From Blastocatellia bacterium (GTDB lineage: Bacteria > Acidobacteriota > Blastocatellia > Chloracidobacteriales > JADJPF01): a stretch of DNA of 34,272 nt. The notes beneath the pieces are model-generated. The model was not told the DNA's origin, made no database searches, and was given only the letters and a program-made list of their open reading frames with translations. This document shows positions 2,022 through 30,990 of the stretch, piece by piece. The first letter of the stretch is position 1, and the number at the start of each line of letters is the position of its first letter. Location: assembly GCA_039812885.1 (NCBI GenBank), contig JBDIBI010000015.1:126878-161149 (forward strand), read 5' to 3'. The translations under genes and the position numbers were made by a program.

Positions 2022-3239
2022 ATGACCGAACAAAGCGAACAATTAGCAGCTGGCACAGTTCTAGTTAATCGATACACGATTGTTAAACGGCTTGGTGGAG
2101 GAGGTATGGGAAATGTTTATCTAGCAACAGATAAACATTTGGCAGAAGCACACCGAGCTGTTAAAGAAATGATTGGCCGATTTTCTGATGAAGCATCCAA
2201 AAAAAAGGCGATAGAAGATTTTAAGCGAGAAGCTAATGTTTTGTCTTCTTTGGAACACCCTTCTATTCCTACTGTTTTTGACTATTTTGCTAGTGATGAT
2301 GGCCGTTATTACTTGGTAATGAAATATATTCAAGGTCGTGATTTAGAGGAAGAACTAAATGCAGCAAAGGCTGCTGGTCAGAATTTTCTACCAGAAGCTA
2401 CTGTAGTAAATTGGGCAATTCAATTATGTGAAGTATTTGACTACATTCACAGCCTAGATCCTCCTATTATTTATCGTGACATGAAACCTGCAAATGTTAT
2501 GGTTGACTCTAAGCTTAAACGAGCTATGTTAGTCGACTTTGGTATTGCTAGAGTTGTTGCCCCGACTCAGAAAAATGTTACTGCAATAGGAACAATGGGT
2601 TATGCTCCTCCAGAACTCTTTGCTGGTAAAGTTGAAGCACGTTCTGATATCTACTCTTTAGGTGCAACTATGTTTCACCTTTTAACAGGAGAAGATCCTC
2701 AAGCTAATCCTCTACTACTTTTTGATTTCAGTCGTTTCCCAAGACCAATTCAAATCAATCCTTCGTTAACCAAGACAATTGACGAAATTATTGCTAAGTG
2801 TGTTGCTCATAAGCCTACAGATAGATTTAAATCTGCTGCAGAAATGAAACAAACACTAGAAAAACATCGGTTTGCATTAGAATCAGGAGAAGCTACCAAA
2901 CCTAAAAACCCTGTGGGAGTTTTAAAAATAGTTCTTAGCGGTTCTGGACACCAAGCTACTTTTGAAATAAGCAAAGAAACTAACTTAATTGGTCGTCATG
3001 ATCCTGCTCGAGGCATTACACCAGAAATTGACTTAGGTCAATTTGATAGCTCTGGTAGAGTTTCTCGCCGACATGCAACAATTCATATCCAAGGTGGTAA
3101 TTTCTTTATAGAAGACTTAGGAAGTGCTAATGGTAGTACATTAAATCAAGTACCCTTACCATCACAAGAACGCAAGCCTCTAAAACCTGGAGATCAAATC
3201 CATATAGGCGAAACAGTTCTAGAGTTTTCTATTAAGTAA
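2022..3239 (+). CDS. Ser/Thr protein kinase (Hanks-type) with C-terminal FHA domain
   Basis: Kinase motifs are the G-loop GGGGMGNVY, the lysine in AVKEM, the catalytic loop YRDMKPANVMV, DFG, and GTMGYAPPE. The C-terminal roughly 100 aa form an FHA domain (LIGRH...GRVSRRHATI...FFIEDLGSANGSTLN). Confidence 0.85.
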   Translation: MTEQSEQLAAGTVLVNRYTIVKRLGGGGMGNVYLATDKHLAEAHRAVKEMIGRFSDEASKKKAIEDFKREANVLSSLEHPSIPTVFDYFASDDGRYYLVMKYIQGRDLEEELNAAKAAGQNFLPEATVVNWAIQLCEVFDYIHSLDPPIIYRDMKPANVMVDSKLKRAMLVDFGIARVVAPTQKNVTAIGTMGYAPPELFAGKVEARSDIYSLGATMFHLLTGEDPQANPLLLFDFSRFPRPIQINPSLTKTIDEIIAKCVAHKPTDRFKSAAEMKQTLEKHRFALESGEATKPKNPVGVLKIVLSGSGHQATFEISKETNLIGRHDPARGITPEIDLGQFDSSGRVSRRHATIHIQGGNFFIEDLGSANGSTLNQVPLPSQERKPLKPGDQIHIGETVLEFSIK

Positions 3240-3270
3240 TATTAGAGTAGCAAGTTTTATAATAAAGTAT

Positions 3271-3303
3271 AAAAAAGAGTAGAATTGTTTCTACTCTTTT
3301 TTT
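3271..3303. terminator. Bidirectional rho-independent terminator between the convergent kinase-FHA and metallophosphoesterase genes
   Basis: AAAAAAGAGTAGAA-TTGT-TTCTACTCTTTTTTT forms a 10-bp stem and 4-nt loop, flanked by an A-run on one side and a T-run on the other. Confidence 0.75.
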
Positions 3304-4217
3304 ATTTTTAAGATGACGATTTCTGGAGGAACACAAAAGCGTACTGGAATAATGCTAGTTCCAATCCCAGTACTTACATAAAGATGACGATTATTTTCTA
3401 TTACATGCCCAGCAGCATAACGTTGTCCAAAGCTAGAAGGAATACTAGGCCGACCTAAGAAAGGGAGTTTTATCTGGCCTCCATGAGTATGTCCAGATAA
3501 AGTTAAACTCACCTTATCTGGAATTTCAGGAAAGATATCTGGATTGTGGCTTAGCATTAAAATTGGATCATCACTAGTTTTGGCTAAGGCTTTTATTATA
3601 TTTGGAGGGTCATCTCTTTTCCAAAAGTCCATTAACCCTGCAACCCAAAAACTTTTTCCATCTTTGGTTAATTCGACAGAATCATTTTTTAACACATTGA
3701 TATTAACTTGTTCTAAAGCTGTTTTTAGTGTATTTCCTGTTCCATCTAACCACCAATCATGATTACCCAAAATAGCTATAACACCTAAAGGAGCTTTTAA
3801 TTCTTTTAGTTTTTGAGCAATTTTATCTGGCTCAGCAAAAAAACCAAACTTCTTATAATTAGGGCTAGAAACAACTGTATCTCCTAAAATCATTATTAAA
3901 TCAGGAGATTGTTTATTTGTCTCTGAAACAATAAAGGCTAATCTATCTAAACTTACATGAGGAGATCCTACATGAAGATCTGTTAGAATCGCAATTCTTA
4001 AGCCATTATGTTCTTGGTGCCACTTCCCTATTGATAAATCTACATTTTTAATTACTAGCCGAGAAGGCTCTATCCAAAAAGCCCATACACCTAAAACTAA
4101 GCCTAAAAGAACAAAAAATAAACTAGCAAGTCCTAAGAGTTGTTTTATCTTTTTTCTATAAGAAACTGTTTTTACGACTATTTGCTTTATTTTATCATCA
4201 TCCAAGGAGTCTGACAT
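3291..4217 (-). CDS. Membrane-anchored calcineurin-like metallophosphoesterase (YkuE-like)
   Basis: There is an N-terminal TM helix (LLGLASLFFVLLGLVLGVWAFW) and the metallophosphoesterase motifs ILTDLHVG, GDTV, GNHD, SHNP and GHTHGG. The ATG at 4217 is preferred; the ORF-track start at 4247 is a TTG that would overlap msrB by 23 nt. Confidence 0.75.
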   Translation of the reverse strand: MSDSLDDDKIKQIVVKTVSYRKKIKQLLGLASLFFVLLGLVLGVWAFWIEPSRLVIKNVDLSIGKWHQEHNGLRIAILTDLHVGSPHVSLDRLAFIVSETNKQSPDLIMILGDTVVSSPNYKKFGFFAEPDKIAQKLKELKAPLGVIAILGNHDWWLDGTGNTLKTALEQVNINVLKNDSVELTKDGKSFWVAGLMDFWKRDDPPNIIKALAKTSDDPILMLSHNPDIFPEIPDKVSLTLSGHTHGGQIKLPFLGRPSIPSSFGQRYAAGHVIENNRHLYVSTGIGTSIIPVRFCVPPEIVILKIKKE

Positions 4218-4224
4218 AAATACA

Positions 4225-4629
4225 CTAGTCTGAATCTTTAGGTACAAACTTTAGAGATATAGAATTAATACAATAACGTAAGAAAGTTGGAGCAGGGCCA
4301 TCTTCAAAAACATGTCCTAGATGAGCATCACATTTGCTACATAAAATTTCTTCTCTAACCATAAAGTGGCTATGATCTTGCTCTATTTTTACACTTTCCT
4401 GAGTAACGGGTTCCCAAAAGCTAGGCCAACCACTACCAGAGTTATATTTTGTTTCAGAATTAAACAACTCATTTCCACAACATACACAAAGGTATTTGCC
4501 CTCTTTTTTGTTGTGATAATATTCTCCAGAAAATGGAGCTTCAGTAGCTTTTTTTCTGCAAACCTGGTATTGCTCAAAAGTTAATTCTTTTTTCCATTCT
4601 TCGTCTGATTTAATGACTTTATCGCTCAT
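4225..4629 (-). CDS. msrB: Peptide methionine-(R)-S-oxide reductase MsrB
   Basis: There are two CxxC zinc motifs (CVCCGNELF and [12 protein letters not shown]) and the catalytic signature GHVFEDGP...RYCINS. The ATG at 4629 is preferred, with GGAG 8 nt upstream; the track's 4641 start is a TTG. Confidence 0.85.
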
Positions 4630-4683
4630 AAAAATCTCCAACTAGATTAGTTCCCAAGTAAGTAGAACTTACTTGGGGTGATT

Positions 4684-5103
4684 TTATTTACAGTATTGTT
4701 CAAAAGCATTTTTTAGATCTGTAGCAATATCGTTTGCATGACGGCCTTCAATTTGGTTACGGTGCATCATATAGACTAGTTTTCCATCTTTTAGCAATGC
4801 AACAGAAGGCGAAGATGGGGGCATTGATTCAAAGTAACTTCTTGCTTTAGCAGTAGCTTCTAGATCTTGGCCTGCAAAAACAGTAGTTAATTTATTAGGT
4901 TTAGTTGAGTTTTCCAAAGCTAACGCAACACCAGGTCTAGCTTTACCAGCAGCACAACCACAAATAGAATTTACTACTACTAAAACAGTTCCAGAAGCAT
5001 TTTTCAAATTTACATCTACTTCTTCTGGAGTACGCATTTCAACAAAACCAATTCGCGTTAACTCTTGACGCATAGGGGCAACCATAATTTCTGGATATGG
5101 CAT
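4684..5103 (-). CDS. Bacilliredoxin-like thioredoxin-fold protein (YphP/YqiW, DUF1094 family) with CGC active site
   Basis: The 139-aa ORF has the VVNSICGCAAG CGC redox motif typical of BrxA/BrxB bacilliredoxins. GGAGGAG lies 9 nt upstream of the ATG. It is the first gene of the apparent brx-msrB-phosphoesterase operon. Confidence 0.6.
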   Translation of the reverse strand: MPYPEIMVAPMRQELTRIGFVEMRTPEEVDVNLKNASGTVLVVVNSICGCAAGKARPGVALALENSTKPNKLTTVFAGQDLEATAKARSYFESMPPSSPSVALLKDGKLVYMMHRNQIEGRHANDIATDLKNAFEQYCK

Positions 5104-12029: not shown

Positions 12030-14321
12030 ATGCTACGACGTATATTACCTTGGTGTGTATTACTATTATTCTTTCTGATTCCTTCAAACACAAAAGCACA
12101 AGAATTTGAAATTCAGCGTTTTGACGTTAATGTTCAGCTACAACCTTCTAGTAACTCAGCACAAATTCAAGCAAAATTAGGAGTTATTAATATCACAACT
12201 CAAGGACGAAGTGGTCCTTTTATAAACCTCAAACTTAACAAAAGAGCCAAAATTACAGGTATTCAAGTTGATGGAACAACTGTAGAAATAAAACAAAAAA
12301 ATGATGAACGTCTAACAGAGCTAATCAATGTTTCAATAGATTTCCCTAAACCAGTTGCTCCAAATGCAACTGCTACTATTAATCTAAATTATGCCTTAGA
12401 GATTAAAGAAAGCTCTTCTATTAATGCAATAGTTCCAGGTACTACGGTTTTACTTCCAGAAAGTTTTTGGGTGCCTTTTATACACACTCCTTTTTTAATT
12501 ACTTATGGAGTTGATGTTGCTCCTACAAATATACAAATAAATGCTGTAGAAGGAGAACGCCCACAATCGGATGGTTCAAGACGTTCATCTGGCAATGTTA
12601 TAAATTTTGAACAAACACTTGCAGCTCAGCCAATACTTTTGTCAGGCAATTATGATGATCCTGTAGAAATCAAAGGTCGCAACACTACTACAGAATTTGT
12701 CTATGCTCGTGGGTTATCTAATGCTCGTAAACAAGCAGAAGCTATTTCATCGGAAATAGATAAAATAGTTGACTTTTACAATCAATTGTTAGGTACTAGC
12801 TTGCCTAAAAACTTCAGGATAATTAGTTCTGCACAAGTAGCCTCTTATGTTACTGGAACAACAATTATTCTAGGAGAAGATATCTTTAGACGAGATACTT
12901 TAGATATAGAAACGATAGAGTTTTTATCACGTGCTTTACTGAGAAATAAAATAGCTGGAGAAAACATTTCACGCGGTAAAGGTTGGGCAATTTTACAAGA
13001 TGCTCTACCTGTTTATTTAGCAGGTCTTTATTTTGAAAAAAGCTATGGTGCTGTAGGTGGACAAGAGTTTTTTGCTCGTCGTATTCGTGCATATGCTCCT
13101 GTAGCTGCAACTAAAAATGATGGTGCATTGTTAGGCATTTCCCAACTAGACAATACCTATGCATCTAGTATGTTAAATAAAGCTCCATTACTTTTTAAGA
13201 TTATAGAAGGTCAAATTGGTCGTGAAAAAATGTTGAGCATACTCAAAGATTTACTTAATAGTAAAAATCATGTGCTCCGTTTTGAAGATTTCCGCAAAAG
13301 TATCACAACCAATAAGTCTTTAGAACTATTTTTTGATCAATGGTTTGAAAAAATCATTGATCCAGATTTTGTAATTGGAATTCCTGTTGCAACTGAAGGT
13401 GGCTGGTCTTGTGCTTTACGTAACTTAGGCACAGGTAATGTTGAAGTAAAAGTACTAGCTATTACTGAAAAAGGTGAAAAACTCTATCAAATGGTTAGTC
13501 TACCTTCTCAAGGAAGGGCCGAAGCCTTATTTAAAACTCCAGAAAAGCTTAAATATGTAGAAGTAGATCCAGATAAATTTTTTCCTCAAACCAACTATGA
13601 TAATGATTCCCGTCCTGCCAAAACATCTACTTTTACTTTGTTCAAGGATGCCAATGTTTTATTTAATAAACGTTCCTATGAAGAAGCAGAGGCCAAAATA
13701 AAAGAAGCCCTAGAACAAGAACCTAACAATATCGTTACTAGAACTTTGCTTGCTCGTACGTTTTTAGCTGAATCTAAATTTAGTGAAGCAAAAACAGAAA
13801 CAGATACTATATTAAAATCTGCTCCATTACCTACTTATTCTATTACTTGGGTAAACTATGTGTTAGGTGCATTAGCATTAAATCAAAAAAATACAAAAGA
13901 AGCTATAGACTATCTACGCCGTGCTATAGCTGTTAGTAAAGATAATATTTTTATTAGAAATAAGCTTATAGAAATTGAAAAAGCTTCAAATCAATTACCA
14001 GCAACAGAAGAATCTGTTAGAAACTTTATTACTCAATTAGATAAAGGGATTAAAGAAGCAACTTTTCAAGCCTTAGAACCTGTCATAGTACGTGCTAATT
14101 TAAATAAGTTTGCAAAAGGTTTAGTAGGAAATAAACCTGAAAGTTGGTCAACAGAAGTTTTGCGCACAGAAGTAATTTCCTCTGATAAAGTCGCAGTTGA
14201 TGTAATTGTAACAGCTGTAGATATTAATAAACGAGAACAAAGCGGAGAAGCACTTTATATCTTGCGACGCAGTGGATCAAGTTGGGTTTTAAATAATGTA
14301 GAATTCTTTAACATTCAATAA
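12030..14321 (+). CDS. Secreted peptidase-M1 (aminopeptidase N)-like protein lacking the HExxH zinc site, with C-terminal TPR repeats and an NTF2-like tail
   Basis: There is a signal peptide. The segment FLSRALLRNKIAGEN...GWAILQDALPVYLAGLY aligns in pattern with the M1 block HELAHQWFGN...WLNEGFASY, but His/Glu/His are replaced by R/A/R. No HExxH occurs anywhere in the 763 aa. TPR-like helices fall at about aa 540-650. Confidence 0.5.
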   Translation: MLRRILPWCVLLLFFLIPSNTKAQEFEIQRFDVNVQLQPSSNSAQIQAKLGVINITTQGRSGPFINLKLNKRAKITGIQVDGTTVEIKQKNDERLTELINVSIDFPKPVAPNATATINLNYALEIKESSSINAIVPGTTVLLPESFWVPFIHTPFLITYGVDVAPTNIQINAVEGERPQSDGSRRSSGNVINFEQTLAAQPILLSGNYDDPVEIKGRNTTTEFVYARGLSNARKQAEAISSEIDKIVDFYNQLLGTSLPKNFRIISSAQVASYVTGTTIILGEDIFRRDTLDIETIEFLSRALLRNKIAGENISRGKGWAILQDALPVYLAGLYFEKSYGAVGGQEFFARRIRAYAPVAATKNDGALLGISQLDNTYASSMLNKAPLLFKIIEGQIGREKMLSILKDLLNSKNHVLRFEDFRKSITTNKSLELFFDQWFEKIIDPDFVIGIPVATEGGWSCALRNLGTGNVEVKVLAITEKGEKLYQMVSLPSQGRAEALFKTPEKLKYVEVDPDKFFPQTNYDNDSRPAKTSTFTLFKDANVLFNKRSYEEAEAKIKEALEQEPNNIVTRTLLARTFLAESKFSEAKTETDTILKSAPLPTYSITWVNYVLGALALNQKNTKEAIDYLRRAIAVSKDNIFIRNKLIEIEKASNQLPATEESVRNFITQLDKGIKEATFQALEPVIVRANLNKFAKGLVGNKPESWSTEVLRTEVISSDKVAVDVIVTAVDINKREQSGEALYILRRSGSSWVLNNVEFFNIQ

Positions 14322-14333
14322 AAGAGGCTTTTA

Positions 14334-15128
14334 ATGAAAAAATTATTTTTAATGTTACTCTGTTTTTCTTTAGTATTGTTTCAAGTTTTAGTATTTGCTC
14401 AAGATAAAATTACTGTAGATCAAATACTAAATAACTATATAAAAGCAATTGGAGGAAAAGAAGCATTAGAAAAAATTATATCTCGTACAGCAACTGGAAC
14501 TTATGAAATCTCCCCTGCTGGAATTAAAGCAGATCTGGAATTATATGCTAAATCACCTAACAGTTTATTACTTAAAGTTAAAGTTTCTAAATCTCAAATA
14601 ATTCAAAGGGCATTTAATGGCAAAGATGGTTGGGCACAAGAGCTTCAAGGAGATATTCGTACAATTGAAGGTACTGAGCTAGAGTTATTAAAATCAAAAG
14701 CTGATTTTTACAAAGCGTTACACCTTAAAGATCTTTACCCACAACTAAAATTTCTAGAAAAAAAACAAATTGAAATCACAGGAAAAGCAAAAACAGAAAA
14801 AAAACAAGTGTATGTTTTAGAATCCAAAAAAGAAAACTCTCCAACAGAGAGATTTTACTTTGATGTTGAAAGTTCTTTATTACTAAGAAATGATATAGAT
14901 ACAGAAATTCCTAAAGCAGTTAAAAAAGAAGGTAGCCCTTTATTTGAATCACAAAAAGCAGTAGTTCCAATAGAAGTTTACTTTGAAGACTATAAAGAAA
15001 TAGATGGAGTAAAAATACCACTAATCACTCGTCAATCAATCGATGAAAACAATATAATTATTAGATTAAACAAAGTAGAGCATAACAAACCTATAGCTGA
15101 TTCTTTGTTTAATCAACCAGAAAAATAA
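14334..15128 (+). CDS. Secreted hypothetical protein (possible LolA-like beta-sandwich)
   Basis: The 264-aa ORF has an AAGAGG RBS and the signal peptide MKKLFLMLLCFSLVLFQVLVFAQ. It is a Lys-rich beta-rich protein. The LolA-like fold assignment is only a guess from pattern. Confidence 0.5.
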   Translation: MKKLFLMLLCFSLVLFQVLVFAQDKITVDQILNNYIKAIGGKEALEKIISRTATGTYEISPAGIKADLELYAKSPNSLLLKVKVSKSQIIQRAFNGKDGWAQELQGDIRTIEGTELELLKSKADFYKALHLKDLYPQLKFLEKKQIEITGKAKTEKKQVYVLESKKENSPTERFYFDVESSLLLRNDIDTEIPKAVKKEGSPLFESQKAVVPIEVYFEDYKEIDGVKIPLITRQSIDENNIIIRLNKVEHNKPIADSLFNQPEK

Positions 15129-15221: not shown

Positions 15222-17690
15222 TTAGTTTTTAGCAACACGAAATCCTATGAAATCACTGGATTTTGCGCTTCCAAAACGAAAAGGAGCTACTATATCGTTA
15301 GCACTTGATTTAAAATTTCCTCCACGTACTGTATAACAACCATTACAATCTATTTTCGCTTTTGTTCCGGCATAAGGTCGATAACTATCGGCAGTCCATT
15401 CACTGACGTTTCCTGACAATCCAATAATACCAAAAGGGCTTTTATCACTAGCCAAAGTAGAGCTATTTATAGGAGCTGTAACCCCTAAACTAGTGTCAGA
15501 ATAAACTGTGTTACCTTTTTCCAAATCATTTCCCCAAGGATAAAGTCGATTTTCTGTTCCACTTGCAGCATATTCCCACTCTTCCTCTGTAGGAAGTCTA
15601 TAACTTTCTTTCTTTACTTTAGATAACCATTGACAATAATACTGGGCATCTTCCCAGGTAACATTAACTACAGGTAAGTCCTCTGCTCCATTTGGAAAAT
15701 CTGTCCCTACCCAACCTAAAGGAGACCTATAATTTGTCTTACGTACAAATTCCTGGTATTGTTTATTAGTAATTTCATAACGGCTTAAAAAGAAAGTTTT
15801 TACCATTACTTGATGAGATGGAGTTTGCTCTAAAGGAACATCTTTGCTTACATCACGCCCCATAACAAAAGAACCTCCAGGAATCTTAACCATTTCTGGA
15901 GTAACTATAATGTCAGCCGTTTTTTGTGTGTTGTTAAATAGCTGTAAAATAAATAAAACTAAGAAAAATAATAAGCCTCCAATAAGAGCTGAAAGAAAAA
16001 ATAAAACTAAATTAGATTCTAATAATTTACTCTTTTTCTTAGGAGAAGATACATTAGTATTAGGAGGAGTCTCAACTAAAGGCTGACGACTTGGCTCTGA
16101 ATATTCATTTACTGTATTATTTACTACATTATTTACTACATTATTTACTGATTTTGGATAGTTTAAGGGTTTGGTTTCTAACCCTGTTGGACCAGAAGGA
16201 GGTATAGGTCTGAGTGGAGATGGCTCTGGTTGGCTATACTTAGATTCATTTCCAGAAACACTAGGGATGTTTGGCGGATTTTGTGGTGAATAAGGCATAT
16301 TAGCCTTAGGAACACGTGAGCGAACATCTAATTCATCTGGAGAAGAATATTTTAAGGGTGTTTGATTATCAAAAGATTCGCTAGAAAAATTATTAGCATT
16401 ATTATTAGCAGGTCTTCTAGGTAAACTACTGACCATTTCTCTAAAATTAACAGCTTGTTCAAAATCTTTTGCTAGTTCCAATGCACTTTGTTGACGATTA
16501 GAAGGTTTCTTTTCAAGTGCCTTCATTACCACATCATCTATACTTACAGGAATTTCTGGACAAAGACTACGCATTGAATTTGGTTTACTTCCAATATGTT
16601 TCAGAGCCATTCCTACTGGAGTTGGATCATTAAAAGGCAAACTTCCAGTTAATGATTCATATAAAATAACTCCCAAAGCATAAATATCTGAACGGTGATC
16701 AATATCTGCACCTTCACAAAGTTCTGGTGAAACATAATTATGTGTACCTAATACTAAACCATGGGAAGTTAGTACACCTTCTGTCCCCAAAGATTTGAGT
16801 TTAGCCATTCCAAAATCTAGTACTTTTACTAATTCTTCTCCACCACTTTCATAGATCATTATATTTTCTGGTTTTAAGTCACGATGCACAATTTGATCAC
16901 GGTGTGCAGCTTCTAAAGCAGAACATATAGGGCGAACAATTTTTAGCATTTCTTTGGGAAGCAGCCTATGCTGATGTTGGAGCCTTTCACGGAAAGTTTC
17001 TCCATTTAAGTATTCCATAGCAAGATAGACTACTTCATCACGAGTAATACCAAAATCTAAAACGTTAATTGCATTAGGATGATGTATTTTTGCTGCAGCA
17101 TGTGCACCACGACGAAATCTTTCTACAGCAGATTGATCATTAACTAAGTAAGGATGCATTATCTTTATTGCCACTGGCACATCCATTTGAATGTGTGTAG
17201 CCTTATACATAACACCTAATTCACCTTCCTTAATTTTGCTGATTATCCTATATTTATCATTAATAATTTTCCCGATATAATCTTTAATTTGCTTTCCAGC
17301 AACAGGAATACCTATAGTTTGCCTAGCTAAAAATGCTTGAGGATCAAAATTAGCGTAGCTGTGATGAGGAGATTTACCTGCATTTTCCTCATCTAAAAGG
17401 CGCATGGCATCCATTAAAACTTCAGCCCAAGATTTAAAAATAGTTCGCTCTGAAGTAGTTACAGAAGCATCTATGCGAAATGAACCTTGTTCATACTTTA
17501 AGGCTTCATATATAGCTTTTACCCCAGAATATTGTCCAAGACGTGCATCATATATTTCTCCATCTTGAAAATAAAAAACACCATCTCCAACAGGGAAACG
17601 TACTAGTAATCGTGCAACATTACGCCCTAAACAATTAATCTGAATAATGTCAGGTAAGGGTAGTTCTTTTATATCTCCAACTAATGCCAT
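15222..17690 (-). CDS. Multidomain Ser/Thr kinase: N-terminal DUF4388, Hanks kinase domain, Pro/Ser/Asn-rich linker, one TM helix and a C-terminal extracytoplasmic FGE-sulfatase (formylglycine-generating-enzyme-like) domain
   Basis: DUF4388 is MALVGDIKELPLPDIIQINCLGRNVARLLV. The kinase shows VAIKIM, HRDLKPENIMI, DFGMAKL and NYVSPE. The TM helix is LVLFFLSALIGGLLFFLVLFIL. The FGE block is IPGGSFVMGRD...RGGNF...GFRV. Confidence 0.85.
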   Translation of the reverse strand: MALVGDIKELPLPDIIQINCLGRNVARLLVRFPVGDGVFYFQDGEIYDARLGQYSGVKAIYEALKYEQGSFRIDASVTTSERTIFKSWAEVLMDAMRLLDEENAGKSPHHSYANFDPQAFLARQTIGIPVAGKQIKDYIGKIINDKYRIISKIKEGELGVMYKATHIQMDVPVAIKIMHPYLVNDQSAVERFRRGAHAAAKIHHPNAINVLDFGITRDEVVYLAMEYLNGETFRERLQHQHRLLPKEMLKIVRPICSALEAAHRDQIVHRDLKPENIMIYESGGEELVKVLDFGMAKLKSLGTEGVLTSHGLVLGTHNYVSPELCEGADIDHRSDIYALGVILYESLTGSLPFNDPTPVGMALKHIGSKPNSMRSLCPEIPVSIDDVVMKALEKKPSNRQQSALELAKDFEQAVNFREMVSSLPRRPANNNANNFSSESFDNQTPLKYSSPDELDVRSRVPKANMPYSPQNPPNIPSVSGNESKYSQPEPSPLRPIPPSGPTGLETKPLNYPKSVNNVVNNVVNNTVNEYSEPSRQPLVETPPNTNVSSPKKKSKLLESNLVLFFLSALIGGLLFFLVLFILQLFNNTQKTADIIVTPEMVKIPGGSFVMGRDVSKDVPLEQTPSHQVMVKTFFLSRYEITNKQYQEFVRKTNYRSPLGWVGTDFPNGAEDLPVVNVTWEDAQYYCQWLSKVKKESYRLPTEEEWEYAASGTENRLYPWGNDLEKGNTVYSDTSLGVTAPINSSTLASDKSPFGIIGLSGNVSEWTADSYRPYAGTKAKIDCNGCYTVRGGNFKSSANDIVAPFRFGSAKSSDFIGFRVAKN
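16106..16152. repeat. 15-bp in-frame tandem repeat (about 3 copies) inside the kinase linker
   Basis: The plus strand reads ...catttactgtattatttactacattatttactacattatttactg... It encodes VNNVVNNVVNNTVN on the minus strand. Confidence 0.6.
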
Positions 17691-17821
17691 AAGTGTCTCG
17701 ACAAAAGCGTTTGCTTCAAATACTGGTATGAATATTTAGCATTTAACCACAAAATTCTTATTAGCAAAGTAACAAAAATACTACTTAGTGTCAATCTAGC
17801 AACTTTCTAAATTTATAAAGA

Positions 17822-17866
17822 AAATAACAGCAGAAAGAACTAGTGTAATATACTAGTTCTTTCTGC
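17822..17866 (-). terminator. Rho-independent terminator of the TPR-CHAT gene
   Basis: A perfect 15-bp inverted repeat GCAGAAAGAACTAGT/ACTAGTTCTTTCTGC with a 7-nt loop overlaps the stop codon. On the minus-strand transcript it is followed by UGUUAUUUUCUUUAUAAAUUU. Confidence 0.7.
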
Positions 17867-20800
17867 TACTTCCATTCTCCTTGTAGCTGAAAATTAGCCC
17901 AATAAAACGGATTTTTATATTTTTCATCTTGGCGCATTTCCAATTGAGCGGCTCTTAAAGCAGCTATAGGAGTTTGTCCTTCTTTAAGTGTCTTTTGATA
18001 GAATTTTTTCATTAGTTCTGTATTTGCAGTATCATTAACATTCCATAAACTAACCATTACTCTAGAAGCTCCAGCATATATAAATCCTCGGGTCATTCCT
18101 AATAAACCTTCAGCTTGAGCATTTTTACCTACATTAGCTTCACATGCACTTAAAGTAATCAAATCTACAGGAAGATTAAGGTTAAACACTTTATAAGCCT
18201 GTAAAAATCCATCTTGTATATTTCCTTGCTCATCTGTTAGCGAAAGCATAATGCCCGATAACTCTGGATTGCTGCTATTGACTAAACTATAAGTAGAAAA
18301 ATGAATAACTTGATACTGTGAAGCTTTACCTTCTAGTAAAAACTTTATGTTAGCATCTGCACCTAAAACTTGTTTAACTTTTCCTTCTCCTAAAAAAGTA
18401 CTTAGCTCTTTGGTTTCATCACTAGAAATAGATAATCTAGCTATTTCTGAATTTAAACCTACTACTCCAACTTGTTGGGCGGATTTTTTCATCAATAAAT
18501 TACTATTTGCTAAATCTTTTGACTCAGAAGTATTTTTATTGTTATGTTTTGTACTCTTAACTCTAGTATCATTGCTAGAAAAAATCGGATCACCAATTAG
18601 TAATACTTCTTTGCTAGCTTGCTTAGATGCCTTATTTTCTCGCCTTATGCTAGATATTGTAGCAATAGAAGGAAGTGAAATTATCTCATGATTTACTAAA
18701 AGAGGTTCATCACTGCCTTTATTAGGTTCTGGTAAAGCATTGAATGGAATATATTGTAGTGAACCATCTAATACTAATACTAGGCGTTTTTTTCCTAATA
18801 GATCAGCCACAGGTGATAACAATATTTTGCTTAACTGAGAAGCAATCTTAGGATATTCATTATCCGCCAGTTCTAAAGTCATAGGACGAGAACCAACACT
18901 TTTTCCTTTAGCTAATAAACTACGAGCTATCATTAATTCCCGCCAATAATTAGTTAATGACTCTATTTCACTACGCTTAGGCAAAGTAAAACTTTTTACT
19001 TCTGATTGAGAAATAAACCATAAATAACTATTATCAGTCCCAATAGAATAATTCAATATAACAGTATTTTCATCTAGTATTTGTTGTTGAATTGTTTTTA
19101 TATCAAAAGCTCTAGGATGAGAAAATTCTGCATAAGTAGGATTAGTTTGTTCAATTTGAGCTTGGCATTCTTTTAATTCTTTTGAGAGACTTTCTATTTC
19201 TTTTTCTGCCTCTTTAACTTCAATAATAGAACTTTCTACTATATTAAGTTTAACAAGCCGTGCTGTCTTATCACCAATTAATTGTTTTAGCTCTCTTTCT
19301 TGAGCAATAAACTTGTTAGTAGGTGAAAAAACTTCTTTACCTCTTAACAAATTTGTTAGGTTGTAGTCTCTAGCTTGTTCACTAACTTTTAAGGCTTCAA
19401 TGTTTTTCCCTGCTTTTGGATCTAGTTTATGTTGATGCATTAAAACATTTACATAAAGTTTATAATAATCTTCTACACTAGTACTATAACTGTAATGTAG
19501 TTCCTGATCTTTAGAATTACTTTGCAAATTTTCAATAAGCTGAATGGCTTTCTCTATATTTTCCTGTGAGTCTTTAAGCTCATTTCGTCTATACTTTAAC
19601 AAGGCTAATCTATAAAGCAGTTGAGCTTCTTTTATTTCATCTTGCAATTCTTTAGCTACAATAATTCCTTGTTTATAAGAAGCTATAGCTTTTTCTTCAT
19701 CATAATTAAATTCCAAAGCTCGTCCAAGGTGATAGAAAATTTTTGCTTCAAGTTCCCTATTACCTTTTCTTTGGTTTAATTTATAAGCTTCTGTAAAAAA
19801 TCCAGCAGCTTTGTCTCCATCCCCTAAATCAAGATGTGCTTGCCCTACATCTATAGCTGTAGCAACACTTCCTGTTATATCGTTATTTTGCTTTAATAAC
19901 GTGAATACATCACTATAAATATCAATAGCCTTTCTAGCTTCTCCACTATCTCTATAAACCGTAGCTAGATTGTTTAATATTTGTGCTTGGCGAAGTCTAT
20001 CTTGTTTTATCTCTGTTAACTCAAGAGCTGTTTCCAAAGAGTTTAGAGCTTTTGTCACTTCTCCAGATCTATGATAAATTTCACCTAAATTATTTAGGAT
20101 TTCTGCTACTTTTTCTTCCTTACGTAACTTAGTCCATATATCTAAAGCTTGTTCATAATAACTTATTGCATTATTAGAATTATCTAAATCATCATATATA
20201 TTTCCAATGCTAGTTAACGTACTGGCTTCTAAAAGTTTATTCCCTTGATCATGAGCAATTAACAAAGTTTTTTCGTAATAACTTAAAGCTAATTTTGTTT
20301 CAGCTAAAAAATAGTAATCTCCTGCAAGTTCCCCAGTAATTTTAGCAACTTCTTCTGGCTCGTTTAATTCTTGCCAAACATCTAAAGCTTGTTTGTCATA
20401 GTCTATAGATTTTTTCATTGCTCCTTGATTTTTATAGAAATTTGCTAAAAAAGTTAAAGTTTGAGCAACTACTTCTTTGTTATTTGTCTCTTTACCTAAG
20501 GCTAATGCCTGATTGTAATAGTTTAAGGCTTGTTCTTCATCACCTATTGAATAAGAAACTAACCCCAAATTTTTCAAGCTTCTTGCCTGGCGTGAATTTT
20601 CGTTAGCTGTTTTTCTATAATTCAACTCTTTAGTAAAATATTCTAGTGATTGTTGATAGTTTCCTGCTAAGTAGTAACTTTCTCCGAGTCTTCTAAAAAC
20701 ATCTGCTATTGCTGCCTCTTCACCTGCTTTTTGCCAATATTTTAAGGCTGAAAGATACCGATCTACAGAAGTTAAAAAACCTTCTTTTGTTCCTATTTTT

Positions 20801-21309
20801 TGTAGTAAGTTTGCTTGTTCAGTTAACTCTCTAGCAATGCATCTATTTTTATCCTTAAGCAAAGCTTGTCGCATCTCTTTTATTTCTAAGTGATAAAGTG
20901 CAGGGCTAGTAATCTCATCTAATGAAGTTAGTTCTATTTGATAGTTGCCAGTAATTTTTGCAACAATTTCTAAAGTTTCTCGCTGAGTTTGTCTATCTTC
21001 TGTTACTAAATGGAAAACAGTTTCTCCACTAGGAGCAGTAATATTTATATCTACAGCCAATTTATCTGTTTGTGCAGCAATTTTTAAATATTGGCCTGCT
21101 TTGAGAGCAATTTGATAGGAATGAGATTCTTGCCCTTTTATTTCCCTATTAATATGTTGGCCTACCTTTCCAAACTCCAAGTTTTCCGACTCTACTTTTG
21201 AATCTAAATTTGTTTGTGTTTGTCCATTAGTTGAAAAAGGTGTGCTTAGCAATAAAATGATTACTATAGAGTACGTAAAAACTCTTATAGCATAACTTAC
21301 ATATGCCAT
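17866..21309 (-). CDS. Secreted multi-domain protein: signal peptide, pre-peptidase C-terminal (PPC)-like domain, about 10 TPR repeats, coiled coil and a C-terminal CHAT (caspase-like) protease domain
   Basis: The 1147-aa ORF has an AGGAG RBS and the signal peptide MAYVSYAIRVFTYSIVIILLLSTPFS. The PPC-like beta-sandwich covers about aa 40-140. Repeated TPR signatures such as YYEQALDIW and ALKYWQKAG follow. The CHAT block is HFSTYS...LITLSACEANVG...GFIYAGASRVMVSLWNVND, with a His/Cys dyad context. Confidence 0.8.
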   Translation of the reverse strand: MAYVSYAIRVFTYSIVIILLLSTPFSTNGQTQTNLDSKVESENLEFGKVGQHINREIKGQESHSYQIALKAGQYLKIAAQTDKLAVDINITAPSGETVFHLVTEDRQTQRETLEIVAKITGNYQIELTSLDEITSPALYHLEIKEMRQALLKDKNRCIARELTEQANLLQKIGTKEGFLTSVDRYLSALKYWQKAGEEAAIADVFRRLGESYYLAGNYQQSLEYFTKELNYRKTANENSRQARSLKNLGLVSYSIGDEEQALNYYNQALALGKETNNKEVVAQTLTFLANFYKNQGAMKKSIDYDKQALDVWQELNEPEEVAKITGELAGDYYFLAETKLALSYYEKTLLIAHDQGNKLLEASTLTSIGNIYDDLDNSNNAISYYEQALDIWTKLRKEEKVAEILNNLGEIYHRSGEVTKALNSLETALELTEIKQDRLRQAQILNNLATVYRDSGEARKAIDIYSDVFTLLKQNNDITGSVATAIDVGQAHLDLGDGDKAAGFFTEAYKLNQRKGNRELEAKIFYHLGRALEFNYDEEKAIASYKQGIIVAKELQDEIKEAQLLYRLALLKYRRNELKDSQENIEKAIQLIENLQSNSKDQELHYSYSTSVEDYYKLYVNVLMHQHKLDPKAGKNIEALKVSEQARDYNLTNLLRGKEVFSPTNKFIAQERELKQLIGDKTARLVKLNIVESSIIEVKEAEKEIESLSKELKECQAQIEQTNPTYAEFSHPRAFDIKTIQQQILDENTVILNYSIGTDNSYLWFISQSEVKSFTLPKRSEIESLTNYWRELMIARSLLAKGKSVGSRPMTLELADNEYPKIASQLSKILLSPVADLLGKKRLVLVLDGSLQYIPFNALPEPNKGSDEPLLVNHEIISLPSIATISSIRRENKASKQASKEVLLIGDPIFSSNDTRVKSTKHNNKNTSESKDLANSNLLMKKSAQQVGVVGLNSEIARLSISSDETKELSTFLGEGKVKQVLGADANIKFLLEGKASQYQVIHFSTYSLVNSSNPELSGIMLSLTDEQGNIQDGFLQAYKVFNLNLPVDLITLSACEANVGKNAQAEGLLGMTRGFIYAGASRVMVSLWNVNDTANTELMKKFYQKTLKEGQTPIAALRAAQLEMRQDEKYKNPFYWANFQLQGEWK

Positions 21310-25789: not shown

Positions 25790-28700
25790 TTATTCTTCAC
25801 TATTGGTTCTTTTAATTAATTCTACATCCAAACAAAGTGATTGTAGTTCTCGAATCAACACGTTGAAAGATTCTGGTAGACCAGGATCAAAGTCTGATTC
25901 GCCTTTTACAATAGCTTCGTATATCTTAGAACGACCAGCCACGTCATCAGATTTAGCAGTTAAAAGCTCTTGTAAAATATGAGCAGCACCATAAGCTTCT
26001 AACGCCCAAACTTCCATTTCTCCAAAGCGTTGTCCACCAAACTGAGCTTTACCGCCTAAAGGTTGTTGAGTAATTAATGAGTATGGTCCGATTGAACGAG
26101 CGTGTATCTTATCGTCTACTAAGTGAGAAAGTTTCATCATATAAATGTAGCCGACTGTTACTTTTTGTTCAAATGGTTCACCTGTCATTCCGTCAAATAA
26201 AGCAGTCTTACCACTTTCAGGTAGTTCAGCTTGTCTAAGCATCTCTTTAATTTCTACTTCACTAGCTCCATCAAATACTGGTGTTGCAAAGTGTAAACCT
26301 AGAATTTTTGCTGCCCATCCTAAGTGTGTTTCTAAGATTTGCCCTACATTCATACGAGAAGGTACACCCAATGGATTAAGCACTATTTCTACTGGAATAC
26401 CATTAGGCAAGTATGGCATATCTTCTTCTGGTAAGATTTGAGCAATAACACCCTTATTACCGTGACGACCAGCCATCTTATCTCCAACAGATAGCTTTCT
26501 CTTCATCGCAATAAAGACTTTAACCATTTTGATAACACCAGGAGGAAGTTCATCACCTCTCTTGATCTTATCAATCTTATCTTTATAAAGATCTTCTAAA
26601 ATATCAATTTGGCGTTTAGTTCTTTCTTCCAGCTCTTGAATTTCTTTAGCAGCATCAACTTTTGGATTTTGAACTTCTACTTTGCTTAGTGCTTCAGTAT
26701 CTATGTCTTGAAGAACTTCTTTAGTTAGCAATACACCTTTTTCTAGTAATACTTTCTTACCATAAACCAAGTCTTTAGCTAGCCTTTGACCTTCTAAAAT
26801 CTCATAGATGCGTTTATCTCTTTCTTCATGCAAGATTCGAGTTTCATCATTAAGATTCTTACGTAATTTACCTTCTTCAGATTGCTCTATAGAAATACTA
26901 CGTCTATCTTTTTCTGCACCTTTACGAGTAAATACTTTTACATCAACAATTGTTCCATCAATACCTGGAGGACAAGTTAAACTAGCATCCCGAACATCAC
27001 CAGCTTTTTCACCAAATATTGCTCTGAGTAGTTTTTCTTCTGCTGTAAGTTGGGTTTCACCTTTTGGTGTAACTTTACCTACAAGAATTGAACCCGGTTT
27101 TACTTGAGCACCAATTCTGATAATTCCAGAATCATCCAAATCTCTAAGCATGCTTTCAGAAATATTTGGAATATCGCGAGTTATTTCTTCTGGGCCAAGT
27201 TTAGTGTCACGAGCTTCTATTTCAAGCTCTTCAATGTGAATAGAAGTATAGGAATCTTCTCTAACCAACTTTTCTGATACTAAAATAGCATCTTCAAAGT
27301 TGTAGCCCCGCCAAGGCATAAAGGCTACTAACACATTACGCCCTAAAGCCAATTCTCCGCGATCTGTACAAGGTCCGTCAGCAATTACATCACCTTTACG
27401 AACTCTTTGTCCAACAGCAACAATTGGTTTTTGATTAATACAAGTGTTTTGATTTGAACGTTTAAACTTAACAAGTTGATAGATGTCTGCTGTAACTTCG
27501 CGAGAGAGTCCACCATCTTGTTGATGATCAACACGAATAATGATTCTTTCAGAGTCAACACTATCTACAACACCATCACGTCTTGCAACTACCACAGCTC
27601 CACTATCTTGAGCAGTTACTTTTTCCATACCAGTTCCTACAAAAGGAGCTTCAGCACGAAGTAGTGGTACAGCTTGACGTTGCATGTTCGAACCCATCAA
27701 TGCACGGTTTGCGTCGTCATTTTCTAAGAATGGGATCAAAGAAGCAGCAACAGAAACTAGTTGTTTAGGTGAAACGTCTACGTATTCTATCTCATCTCTA
27801 TGAGCAAGAATAAAATCACCTGCTTTTCTAGCAGCTACGCGCTCAGAAACAATATACATATTTTCATCTAACTCAATGTTAGCTTGTCCAATAGTATGTT
27901 TATCTTCTTCCCATGCAGATAGATAGAAAGGATATGTTTCAAACTCAGCCTGTTTACCATTTGTCTCAGCTAATTTTTTGTTTAGCTCTTCTACATCTTT
28001 CTTAGATACATGATCACCTATACGGAATTCTGTATCTCCACTATTAGTAATCTTAACAAAATCAATAACTTGACCACTTTCTACCTTGCGATAAGGAGAT
28101 TCAATAAAGCCAAATTGATTGATACGAGCATAACAAGAAAGAGAAGAGATCAAACCGATATTTGGACCTTCAGGCGTTTCAATAGGACAAATTCGACCAT
28201 AGTGAGTAGGGTGTACGTCCCGCACTTCAAAACCTGCACGTTCACGTGATAGACCACCTGGTCCTAATGCTGACAAACGGCGTTTATGAGTAATTTCTGA
28301 AAGAGGATTTGTTTGATCCATAAACTGAGAAAGCTGGCTAGAGCCAAAAAATTCTCTTACAGCAGCCGTTACAGGCTTAGCATTGATTAAATCTCTAGGC
28401 ATAGCAGTTTGCATTTCTTGGTGAATGGACATCTTTTCTTTGATAGCCCTTTCCATTCTCACCAAACCTACACGAAACTGATTTTCTAGCAACTCACCTA
28501 CTGCACGAACACGACGATTTCCTAAATGATCAATATCATCTGCTTCCCCAATATTGCGTTTAAGTTTTAACACGTAACGGATAACATCAAAGAAATCTTT
28601 TGGAGAAAGTATTTGTTCATCTAAACCGCTATATTGCTCATAGCCCATTTTGATGTTGAACTTTAGGCGACCAACACGAGAGAAATCAAATTTACGTTCA

Positions 28701-30567: not shown

Positions 30568-30990
30568 CTACTTAATTTCAACAGTTGCACCAGCTTCAGT
30601 AAGCTTCTTTTTGATGCTTTCTGCTTCGTCTTTAGAAGCGCCTTCTTTAATTGCTTTTGGAGCAGCTTCTACTAAATCTTTGGCTTCTTTTAGACCTAAA
30701 GAAGTGATTTCACGTACAACTTTAATAACGTTAATCTTATTTGCACCAACGCTAGCTAAAACGACATCAAATTCTGTCTTTTCTTCAACTGGAGCAGCAG
30801 GAGCAGCAGCGGCAGCAGCAGGAGCAGCAGCAACAGCAGCAGCAGCAGCAGAAACGCCAAAAGCTTCTTCCATCATTTTTACTAGTTCAGCAGCTTCTAA
30901 TAAAGTTAATCCTTTGATTTGGTCTAAAATGCCTTGTAATTTTTCGGATGCCATGAGTAAAAAATCCTCCTTAGAAAACCTCACCTGCAA
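30568..30990 (-). CDS. rplL: 50S ribosomal protein L7/L12
   Basis: The 140-aa ORF has the typical N-terminal dimerisation helix, Ala/Pro hinge and C-terminal domain ([24 protein letters not shown]...). Confidence 0.95.

Follow-up and report, generated by a model that had tools for sequence, protein, structure and literature searches.

What does a protein built on a protease fold do beside a receptor kinase when half of its catalytic dyad is replaced? The question is raised by a stretch of 34,272 nucleotides (nt) from a Blastocatellia bacterium (assembly GCA_039812885.1, contig JBDIBI010000015.1), referred to below as the window. In the list of its open reading frames (ORFs) two large minus-strand genes lie directly after rpoC. 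The minus strand reads nusG-rplK-rplA-rplJ-rplL-rpoB-rpoC, followed by a gene for a TPR-CHAT protein of 1147 amino acids (aa), predicted to be exported, and by a gene for a receptor Ser/Thr kinase of 822 aa (related loci are designated L below, and related proteins P):

17866 to 21309, minus strand: exported TPR-CHAT gene (ORF; Pfam CHAT match at 4.8e-61 together with TPR families; AlphaFold model with a pLDDT of 85.4; Foldseek)
15222 to 17690, minus strand: receptor Ser/Thr kinase gene (ORF; Pfam; orthologues P0121-P0132 with the same architecture)

The initial annotation of this DNA, whose gene positions proved correct, had interpreted the pair as a proteolysis-coupled envelope signalling module. 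That interpretation is weakened by the main finding presented here: the catalytic His position of the CHAT domain is occupied by Tyr in the window protein and in all of its orthologues. We favour, tentatively and at somewhat less than even confidence, a reading in which the TPR-CHAT protein acts by binding and modulates the receptor kinase without canonical proteolysis, the two forming an envelope signalling pair.

The family of CHAT domains to which the window protein belongs is marked by two motifs, HFATHG and (V/I)VLSAC. In peptidases of clan CD a hydrophobic strand is followed by the catalytic His-Gly and another hydrophobic strand by Ala and the catalytic Cys. On the strength of this motif rule we take the His of the THG motif to be the catalytic His. 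The corresponding positions in the window are:

17878 to 18846, minus strand: CHAT (caspase-fold) domain, aa 822-1144 (PF12770, 207 bits, 4.8e-61, profile positions 3-288 of 289)
18289 to 18291, minus strand: codon of Tyr1007 at the catalytic-His position (HFSTYS in the window, HFATHG in the family)
18142 to 18144, minus strand: codon of Cys1056 in the LSAC motif, the retained catalytic-Cys position

An exact look-up of the window CHAT protein returned no gene record, and the comparisons use orthologues. The C-terminal 340 residues of 120 CHAT homologues were aligned with MAFFT. The His column holds His in 113 sequences and Tyr in exactly 7 clusters, namely the window protein together with its orthologues (54-100 % identity). 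The Cys column is Cys throughout, in all 120 homologues and in every orthologue. The Gly that follows the His position is lost as well in the window (HFSTYS). At 80 related genome loci (L010-L089) all 84 other motif-bearing CHAT ORFs have His, and the orthologues of L090 and L092 also have Tyr, with a one-residue deletion immediately before the Cys in L090. Loss of the catalytic Cys or His had been named beforehand as an outcome that would refute the initial interpretation; the His is indeed replaced in the whole clade, and the Cys is kept. Furthermore, a degenerate DNA pattern designed for the Tyr variant was run on the window, on the loci and on the JGI metagenome collection. It matched once in the window, at 10 of 10 clade loci and at none of 84 other loci, and in the metagenome collection it matched 4 contigs, two of them identical to known clade loci. 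Judged by these few matches, all within the clade, the Tyr-type CHAT clade is rare and sharply bounded.

Among the columns with a conservation of 85 % or more, fourteen switch between the clade and the rest of the CHAT family. The near-invariant R895, R963 and G1066 are lost among them, and His1007Tyr is the sole switch from 100 % to 100 %. Of the family-invariant residues the clade retains most, Cys1056 and a further His (H1003) among them, and 39 % of the CHAT-domain columns are invariant inside the Tyr clade. By this measure the CHAT domain of the clade is constrained, with a remodelled active site. Because the catalytic His has become Tyr and other near-invariant residues have changed while the Cys and the fold are constrained, the TPR-CHAT protein is probably a pseudo-protease, dedicated to binding or scaffolding rather than cutting. 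Pseudo-orthocaspases of cyanobacteria, Tyr-for-His variants of caspase homologues that are presumed to be inactive, resemble the window CHAT domain in their caspase fold and in the clade-wide conservation of the replacement. They differ from it in being p20-type (Peptidase_C14) and cytoplasmic proteins with Tyr-Ser in place of His-Cys, whereas the window protein has a CHAT domain and keeps the Cys (PMC6426788).

Spelled out as a rival model, the proteolysis-coupled module of the initial annotation has the exported TPR-CHAT protein as a working protease that cuts the ectodomain of the kinase, or else a ligand or precursor in the periplasm, and thereby switches the kinase. We consider this improbable. 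The model is consistent with the presence of Cys1056 in every clade member, with the retention of most family-invariant CHAT residues, with the invariance of Tyr1007 in the clade, where no drift is seen, with the family-wide invariance of H1003 four residues upstream of it, and with the conserved adjacency of the two genes. DdvA, a TPR-CHAT protein of Myxococcus xanthus, has moreover been proposed to signal through periplasmic CHAT autoproteolysis (PMC11506125). Set against this, no clade member has the His of the His-Gly motif, which is 100 % conserved in 197 other family sequences, the window protein also lacks the following Gly (TYS), the clade has lost the two Arg and the Gly named above, and in L090 the position immediately before the Cys is deleted. 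Tyr at the His position marks presumed inactive pseudo-variants in other caspase homologues (PMC6426788), and the ~10 residues between the kinase transmembrane (TM) helix and the extracytoplasmic domain leave little linker for cleavage. The pseudo-protease reading has weak points of its own. The mapping of Tyr1007 to the catalytic His rests on the clan-CD rule together with the 100 % family conservation, and an hhalign comparison of the CHAT profile with human caspase-3 gave no meaningful alignment. Since Tyr1007 and Cys1056 are clade-invariant and H1003 is family-invariant, non-canonical catalysis by Tyr-type CHAT domains is possible.

Upstream of the CHAT domain the protein consists of a signal peptide, a PPC-like beta-sandwich, ~11 TPR pairs and a helical linker:

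21223 to 21309, minus strand: signal peptide, aa 1 to ~29, MAYVSYAIRVFTYSIVIILLLSTPFSTNG followed by Q (sole hydrophobic segment; no lipobox Cys)
20866 to 21174, minus strand: PPC-like beta-sandwich, aa 46-148 (eight confident strands at aa 52-148 in the model)
19516 to 20859, minus strand: TPR superhelix, aa 151-598 (TPR_12, TPR_1, TPR_2 and related Pfam families; pLDDT >90)

The AlphaFold2 model, built with 65 homologues in the alignment, has a mean pLDDT of 85.4; in it aa 3-22 form a helix and aa 23-42 a disordered linker. The single hydrophobic segment (aa 3-25) is kept in the CHAT orthologues and was seen in 103 of 120 homologues. Since it lacks a lipobox Cys and its hydrophobic core comes after only ~9 residues, the protein would most simply be a Sec-exported soluble protein. 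The initial annotation had given it a signal peptide and a PPC domain. The former holds as a prediction from the sole hydrophobic segment, and the latter is weak. With the whole protein as query no PPC match was found in Pfam at E<=0.01. The isolated N-domain matched PF04151 over the whole profile at E=0.009 with 17.3 bits, the cut-off being 25.9 bits, and a homologous N-domain (P0044) reached 31.1 bits over the same profile span, so that a divergent PPC domain is plausible. Multiple TPR matches of Pfam span aa 180-600. Top matches of the model in a Foldseek search of the PDB were human separase, DdvA (8RW5/8ROT) and Csx29 (8EEY_B), next to plain TPR proteins. Searches of PDB sequences with the CHAT domain, as a single sequence or as a 32-sequence profile, gave no match, and a profile of the full-length protein found TPR proteins only. 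An ORF of 114 aa runs antisense to the CHAT gene (18347-18691, plus strand); it is unsupported and probably spurious.

The neighbouring kinase combines four parts:

17385 to 17678, minus strand: PATAN domain (DUF4388/PatA_N), aa 5-102, cytoplasmic (PF14332, 9.4e-18, profile positions 2-121 of 122)
16488 to 17252, minus strand: Hanks-type kinase domain, aa 147-401 (PF00069, 1e-43; VAIK Lys176, HRD269 and DFG292 intact)
15936 to 16016, minus strand: single TM helix, ~aa 559-585, preceded by KKKSK (Kyte-Doolittle scan)
15228 to 15902, minus strand: FGE-sulfatase-fold (C-type-lectin-like) domain, aa 597-821, predicted to be extracytoplasmic (PF03781, 2.2e-49)

The order of DUF4388, kinase, TM helix and outer FGE domain agrees with the initial annotation in the Pfam matches, with a predicted topology. 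The description of DUF4388 as receiver-like did not hold: DUF4388 is the PATAN domain, an output domain for interactions with other proteins, which in Synechocystis binds the motor of the type IV pilus (bioRxiv 10.1101/2021.06.11.447907). PATAN is the best-conserved part of the kinase, with 87-92 % identity among close orthologues versus 62-79 % for the FGE domain. The catalytic motifs of the kinase domain are intact and an APE-like motif is present as SPE; the receptor kinase is predicted to be active. The Lys-rich KKKSK on the N-terminal side of the TM helix places the C-terminus with the FGE domain outside the membrane by the positive-inside rule.

Catalytic FGE enzymes carry a copper-binding Cys pair in a C-terminal motif, GGS[YFW]xCHxSYC. 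At this site the window domain reads RGGNFKSSANDIVAPFRFG / RGGNFKSSANDI and has no Cys pair. In the C-terminal alignment no kinase orthologue has a Cys after RGG (RGGNF motif), and the conservation of the Cys pair, proposed earlier as a check, was thus found neither in the window nor in any orthologue. Compared with PDB sequences the domain is closest to ToxD (7SPQ), followed by FGE, pFGE and PorK. Given the absence of the catalytic Cys pair, the domain is read as a binder and not as an enzyme, that is, as a putative non-catalytic binding module of C-type-lectin fold. That FGE-fold domains of bacteria serve as ligand binders without being enzymes is established (PMC7159879, PMC10907252). A C-x-[GN]-C (CxxC) motif lies right before RGG (window 15270-15300, ~aa 776-786) and was found only in the PATAN-kinase clade P0121-P0132, where it could form a periplasmic disulfide or a metal site. 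Receptor kinases with the same kinase-TM-FGE layout are many (NCBI 'bifunctional serine/threonine-protein kinase/formylglycine-generating enzyme'); among them an N-terminal PATAN domain together with the CxxC before RGG is restricted to this small clade. PixG and PixE (PATAN-REC) share the N-terminal PF14332 domain, and the Synechocystis PATAN binds PilB1 and PilC (bioRxiv 10.1101/2021.06.11.447907). The window PATAN has a kinase as its fusion partner in place of REC, and the window harbours no pilus genes.

Some further observations concern the kinase gene. A 12-nt tandem repeat of 3.6 copies (window 16107-16149) encodes NNVVNNVVNNTVN in the low-complexity cytoplasmic linker between kinase domain and TM helix. 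The orthologue in L001 (14710-17149) is split in two ORFs of 245 and 535 aa, and that in L004 (7059-9556) has lost its last 65 aa to a frameshift; these breaks are either assembly errors in metagenome bins or kinase decay in some lineages. The FGE domain as variable protein of a diversity-generating retroelement was considered and rejected: the window has no reverse transcriptase-like ORF and no template/variable (TR/VR) repeats, that is, no repeat matching the 3' end of the kinase gene.

How the two genes are transcribed bears directly on their relation. As stated in the initial annotation, they are co-directional and separated by a 175-nt spacer (17691-17865) and a strong terminator, borne out as a hairpin of 19 bp:

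17826 to 17870, minus strand: terminator-like hairpin of 19 bp with a 7-nt loop and a T-rich tail, overlapping the CHAT stop codon
17766 to 17797, minus strand: promoter-like block of 32 nt upstream of the kinase, AGATTGACACT-N6-TATTTTTGTTACTTT (spacer alignment)
Same 32-nt block in related loci: L001 14612-14643; L003 13458-13489; L004 6958-6989; L005 3898-3929; L007 9880-9911; L090 2606-2637; L092 9903-9934
21509 to 21541, strand not assigned: palindromic hairpin of 15 bp that separates rpoC from the CHAT gene, likely the rpoBC terminator

The 32-nt block is composed of a -35 element TTGACA, a 17-nt spacer and a TG-extended -10 element TACTTT, and lies ~75-100 nt 5' of the PATAN-kinase start. 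It is identical in all close orthologue loci, including L004, where the genomic context differs, and L007, where the kinase is unlinked from the CHAT gene, and it is unchanged among orthologues whose proteins share merely 65-76 % identity. Related blocks are also present upstream of the distant orthologues (43-60 % identity) in L009 and L094. The block reads as a strongly constrained promoter of the kinase's own. Since it is conserved beyond what a promoter alone needs, an operator may overlap it. An operon of the two genes was considered for the window and rejected, a terminator lying between them and the kinase having a conserved promoter to itself.

The adjacency of the two genes is kept in eight distinct relatives and in at least two genomic contexts. 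The nearest relatives of both proteins come from metagenome-assembled genomes of Acidobacteria/Blastocatellia, and three such acidobacterial genomes encode an RpoC with 90 % identity to that of the window. The order rpoC, Tyr-type CHAT gene, PATAN-kinase-FGE gene was found in L001 (GCA_016713405.1), L003 (GCA_964492845.1), L092 (GCA_049276615.1) and L005/L006. In L090 and L091 the Tyr-type CHAT gene is followed by the PATAN kinase gene; these contigs end before the rpoC position, and their downstream genes match the window. Both flanks differ in L004, with a FecR-like gene, an ECF sigma gene and a kinase gene upstream and IMPDH downstream, and the Tyr-type CHAT gene and the PATAN kinase gene are still neighbours. 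The same adjacency is seen in L095, an L004-related contig that is too short to display flanks. Thus the neighbourhood noticed in the window, for which a check in relatives had been suggested, is a feature of close relatives, including one with a different context. Furthermore, all five genomes or contigs with a kinase of the clade at 65 % identity or more also carry a Tyr-type CHAT gene.

In the wider family, signal-peptide TPR-CHAT proteins have at least 592 confirmed matches in species-representative genomes, mainly of Acidobacteria and cyanobacteria. In the scan of contigs of these genomes the matches listed are paralogues of at most 37 % identity, which served as background set. These exported PPC-TPR-CHAT paralogues have the same architecture as the window protein, with 29-37 % identity over ~75-100 % of alignable length; they share the signal peptide, and the acidobacterial ones also the N-terminal beta-sandwich. 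As in the window, they are associated with membrane Ser/Thr kinases that have an extracytoplasmic C-terminal domain. They differ in that the His of THG is kept, that the kinase has DUF4384 and neither FGE nor PATAN and follows an ECF43-like sigma gene, and that a gene for a secreted DUF4384 protein usually stands before or after the CHAT gene. At ~12 acidobacterial loci genes for an ECF sigma factor (PF07638), a kinase-TM-DUF4384 protein, a TPR-CHAT protein and a signal-peptide DUF4384 protein are clustered, among them:

L030, 6489 to 14050: ECF sigma/kinase/TPR-CHAT/DUF4384 cluster
L042, 6005 to 14079: same cluster
L053, 4758 to 13252: same cluster
L071, 1858 to 9010: same cluster
L081, 5752 to 13047: same cluster
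L004, 911 to 9329: listed among the recurring ECF sigma/kinase/TPR-CHAT clusters

The kinase of these clusters has one TM helix with the C-terminal DUF4384 outside, and the His-Cys dyad of the TPR-CHAT protein is intact. An ECF sigma gene lies beside the kinase and CHAT genes in L004, L030, L042, L048, L053, L071 and L081. Activation of ECF sigma factors by a neighbouring kinase (ECF43 and others) and CHAT proteins in an ECF54 context are on record (PMC8999054); a description of the four-gene arrangement itself was not found in the literature searched. In the window no ECF sigma gene stands next to the membrane kinase, rpoC being upstream and the kinase downstream of the CHAT gene. The window pair has the look of a derivative of this acidobacterial ECF sigma/kinase/TPR-CHAT theme, one with FGE instead of DUF4384, an additional PATAN domain, no sigma gene close by and a CHAT domain that has lost its His. 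CHAT and the FGE fold are linked a second time, independently, in L040 (9965-14529), where an FGE-sulfatase ORF of 230 aa (7.7e-57) begins 12 nt past the TPR-CHAT stop codon. It is in a different frame from the CHAT gene and without a signal peptide of its own, and it may represent a frameshifted CHAT-FGE fusion or a coupled partner.

These data have to be weighed against another explanation, in which the two genes are independent, their adjacency is synteny inherited in a narrow, paralogue-rich lineage, the partners of the CHAT protein are an ECF43-like sigma factor and kinase elsewhere, and the PATAN kinase senses something unrelated. We regard this as rather unlikely, though several findings count in its favour and against a coupling. 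The rpoC-context loci belong to a narrow lineage, with RpoC 90 % identical, so that the adjacency there is mostly inherited synteny and the independent evidence for linkage comes down to one or two rearrangement events. GCA_016213785.1 carries both genes on separate contigs (L002, L007), the distant PATAN-kinase-FGE orthologues of L008, L009 and L094 (43-60 % identity) lie in another conserved context and have no CHAT neighbour, and a PATAN kinase was found at 0 of 80 distant TPR-CHAT loci. Given the terminator after the CHAT gene and the kinase's own conserved promoter, which stays with the kinase when it is unlinked in L007, the two genes are probably separate transcription units, neighbours without being an operon. 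The hairpin at 17826-17870, present in the window, is absent from the aligned CHAT-kinase spacers of the relatives. In L004 the CHAT gene is packed against the upstream ECF sigma and kinase genes, beginning 40 nt after this pair, and the sigma factor and kinase may be its true partners there; the arrangement recurs in L030, L042, L048, L053, L071 and L081. On the other side, independence sits poorly with the persistence of the pair in L004 despite two different flanks and with its adjacency in L095 (flanks not visible), with the perfect co-occurrence, in the sampled genomes, of Tyr-type CHAT and the kinase clade of at least 65 % identity, and with the prediction that the variable domains of both proteins face the same compartment. 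In the wider family, too, the gene after CHAT encodes an exported domain (DUF4384; FGE in L040). Overall the evidence for a CHAT-kinase coupling is modest.

A precedent for a periplasmic TPR-CHAT protein in signalling is DdvA of M. xanthus (PDB 8ROT/8RW5), an anti-sigma factor able to gate an ECF sigma factor (PMC11506125). Like the window protein it is a TPR-CHAT protein of the separase/craspase type located outside the membrane and linked to signalling, and it has also been described with an incomplete active site (PMC11506125). In view of DdvA and of the at least 592 exported family members, the statement that an extracytoplasmic CHAT protein is atypical was overstated. The likeness between DdvA and the window protein is structural (Foldseek), with no detectable similarity at the sequence level. 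DdvA spans the membrane once, carries a zinc-binding anti-sigma domain on the cytoplasmic side and has a cognate ECF sigma factor, whereas the window protein has a cleavable-type signal peptide only, with no cytoplasmic anti-sigma domain in the ~9 residues that precede its hydrophobic segment. The His862/Cys907 dyad is present in DdvA, which is without a three-helix motif; in the window protein Tyr stands in for the His, and there is a PPC-like N-domain. Its gene adjoins a receptor kinase gene and no sigma gene, in contrast to DdvA, and in L004 an ECF sigma gene lies two genes upstream. Csx29 of the type III-E craspase and eukaryotic separase have the same TPR-CHAT fold as the window protein. 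They are cytoplasmic or nuclear proteins with an intact dyad, and Csx29 is bound to Cas7-11, a partner that the window does not have. A link between exported TPR-CHAT proteins and kinase/ECF-sigma signalling is known in kind; what stands out here is the rare and cleanly bounded His-to-Tyr clade with its specific PATAN-kinase-FGE neighbour.

If the TPR-CHAT protein and the kinase do form a signalling pair, the TPR-CHAT protein would bind, present or mask a periplasmic ligand, or bind the FGE-like domain itself, as scaffold, co-receptor or decoy. Such binding would set the activity of the receptor kinase, which would phosphorylate cytoplasmic targets, while PATAN would position the kinase or read it out through a cytoplasmic partner. 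A more far-reaching version can be formulated, in which the caspase-fold pseudo-protease is a periplasmic co-receptor that binds the FGE/lectin ectodomain or its ligand, the signal is relayed via PATAN, possibly to type IV pilus or secretion ATPases, and exported TPR-CHAT proteins form a general and so far undescribed periplasmic input layer for kinase/ECF-sigma signalling in Acidobacteria. Taken as a whole this version is unlikely, and we present it as speculation.

A role in anti-phage defence or another conflict system has also been considered, as FGE-fold sensors, caspase-like peptidases and kinases recur in prokaryotic conflict systems (PMC7159879, PMC10907252), as DdvA controls a CBASS-CRISPR island (PMC11506125), and as the receptor kinase matches kinase models of PADLOC. 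These models equally match an unrelated STK-FHA gene (2022-3239) and are hence generic; PADLOC gave generic kinase and TPR matches only, and the CHAT protein matched just a TPR model. The 34-kb window holds no CRISPR array, cas gene, gasdermin, NTPase, reverse transcriptase or TR/VR repeat, and none of the type III-E partners (Cas7-11, Csx30/31, CRISPR array). The pair's locus belongs to the core genome, following rpoBC and syntenic among relatives, and both sensor parts are predicted to be extracytoplasmic. A defence role is thus highly improbable and already largely refuted, in line with the initial annotation, which had seen no recognisable defence locus here.

The pair is of interest beyond this locus. 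CHAT proteins of the exported kind abound in soil Acidobacteria and cyanobacteria, DdvA alone having been studied, and a second general question is how bacterial receptor Ser/Thr kinases receive periplasmic signals. The His-less clade and the dyad-keeping paralogues beside ECF-sigma/kinase/DUF4384 genes offer a natural comparison. If the Tyr variant still signals, a TPR-CHAT scaffold can work through binding alone, which would bear on the regulation of DdvA-type and craspase-type proteins. The labels 'CHAT domain-containing protein' and 'SUMF1/EgtB/PvdO family nonheme iron enzyme' overstate enzymatic function in this case.

Several minor observations concern the surroundings. Two plus-strand genes converge on the kinase gene: 14334-15128, encoding a signal-peptide protein of 264 aa without a Pfam match, and 12030-14321, encoding a TPR protein of 763 aa. 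Both are syntenic in all rpoC-context relatives and absent from L004. Close to msrB (SelR) and a gene for a PF06491 disulphide isomerase there is a second kinase gene (Pkinase-FHA, 405 aa), all three within window 2022-5103. The same trio is found in L009 (16216-19110), at 4-7 kb from the distant orthologue of the PATAN kinase, a hint of an older common neighbourhood. In the upstream ribosomal protein and RNA polymerase genes, the rpoB and rpoC ORFs as listed overlap by 11 nt (window 25790-25800). The window RpoB is long (1453 aa), with big insertions between its Pfam domains, and a trinucleotide repeat (AGC, 19.7 copies on the plus strand, window 30793-30851) within rplL corresponds to the Ala-rich hinge of L7/L12.

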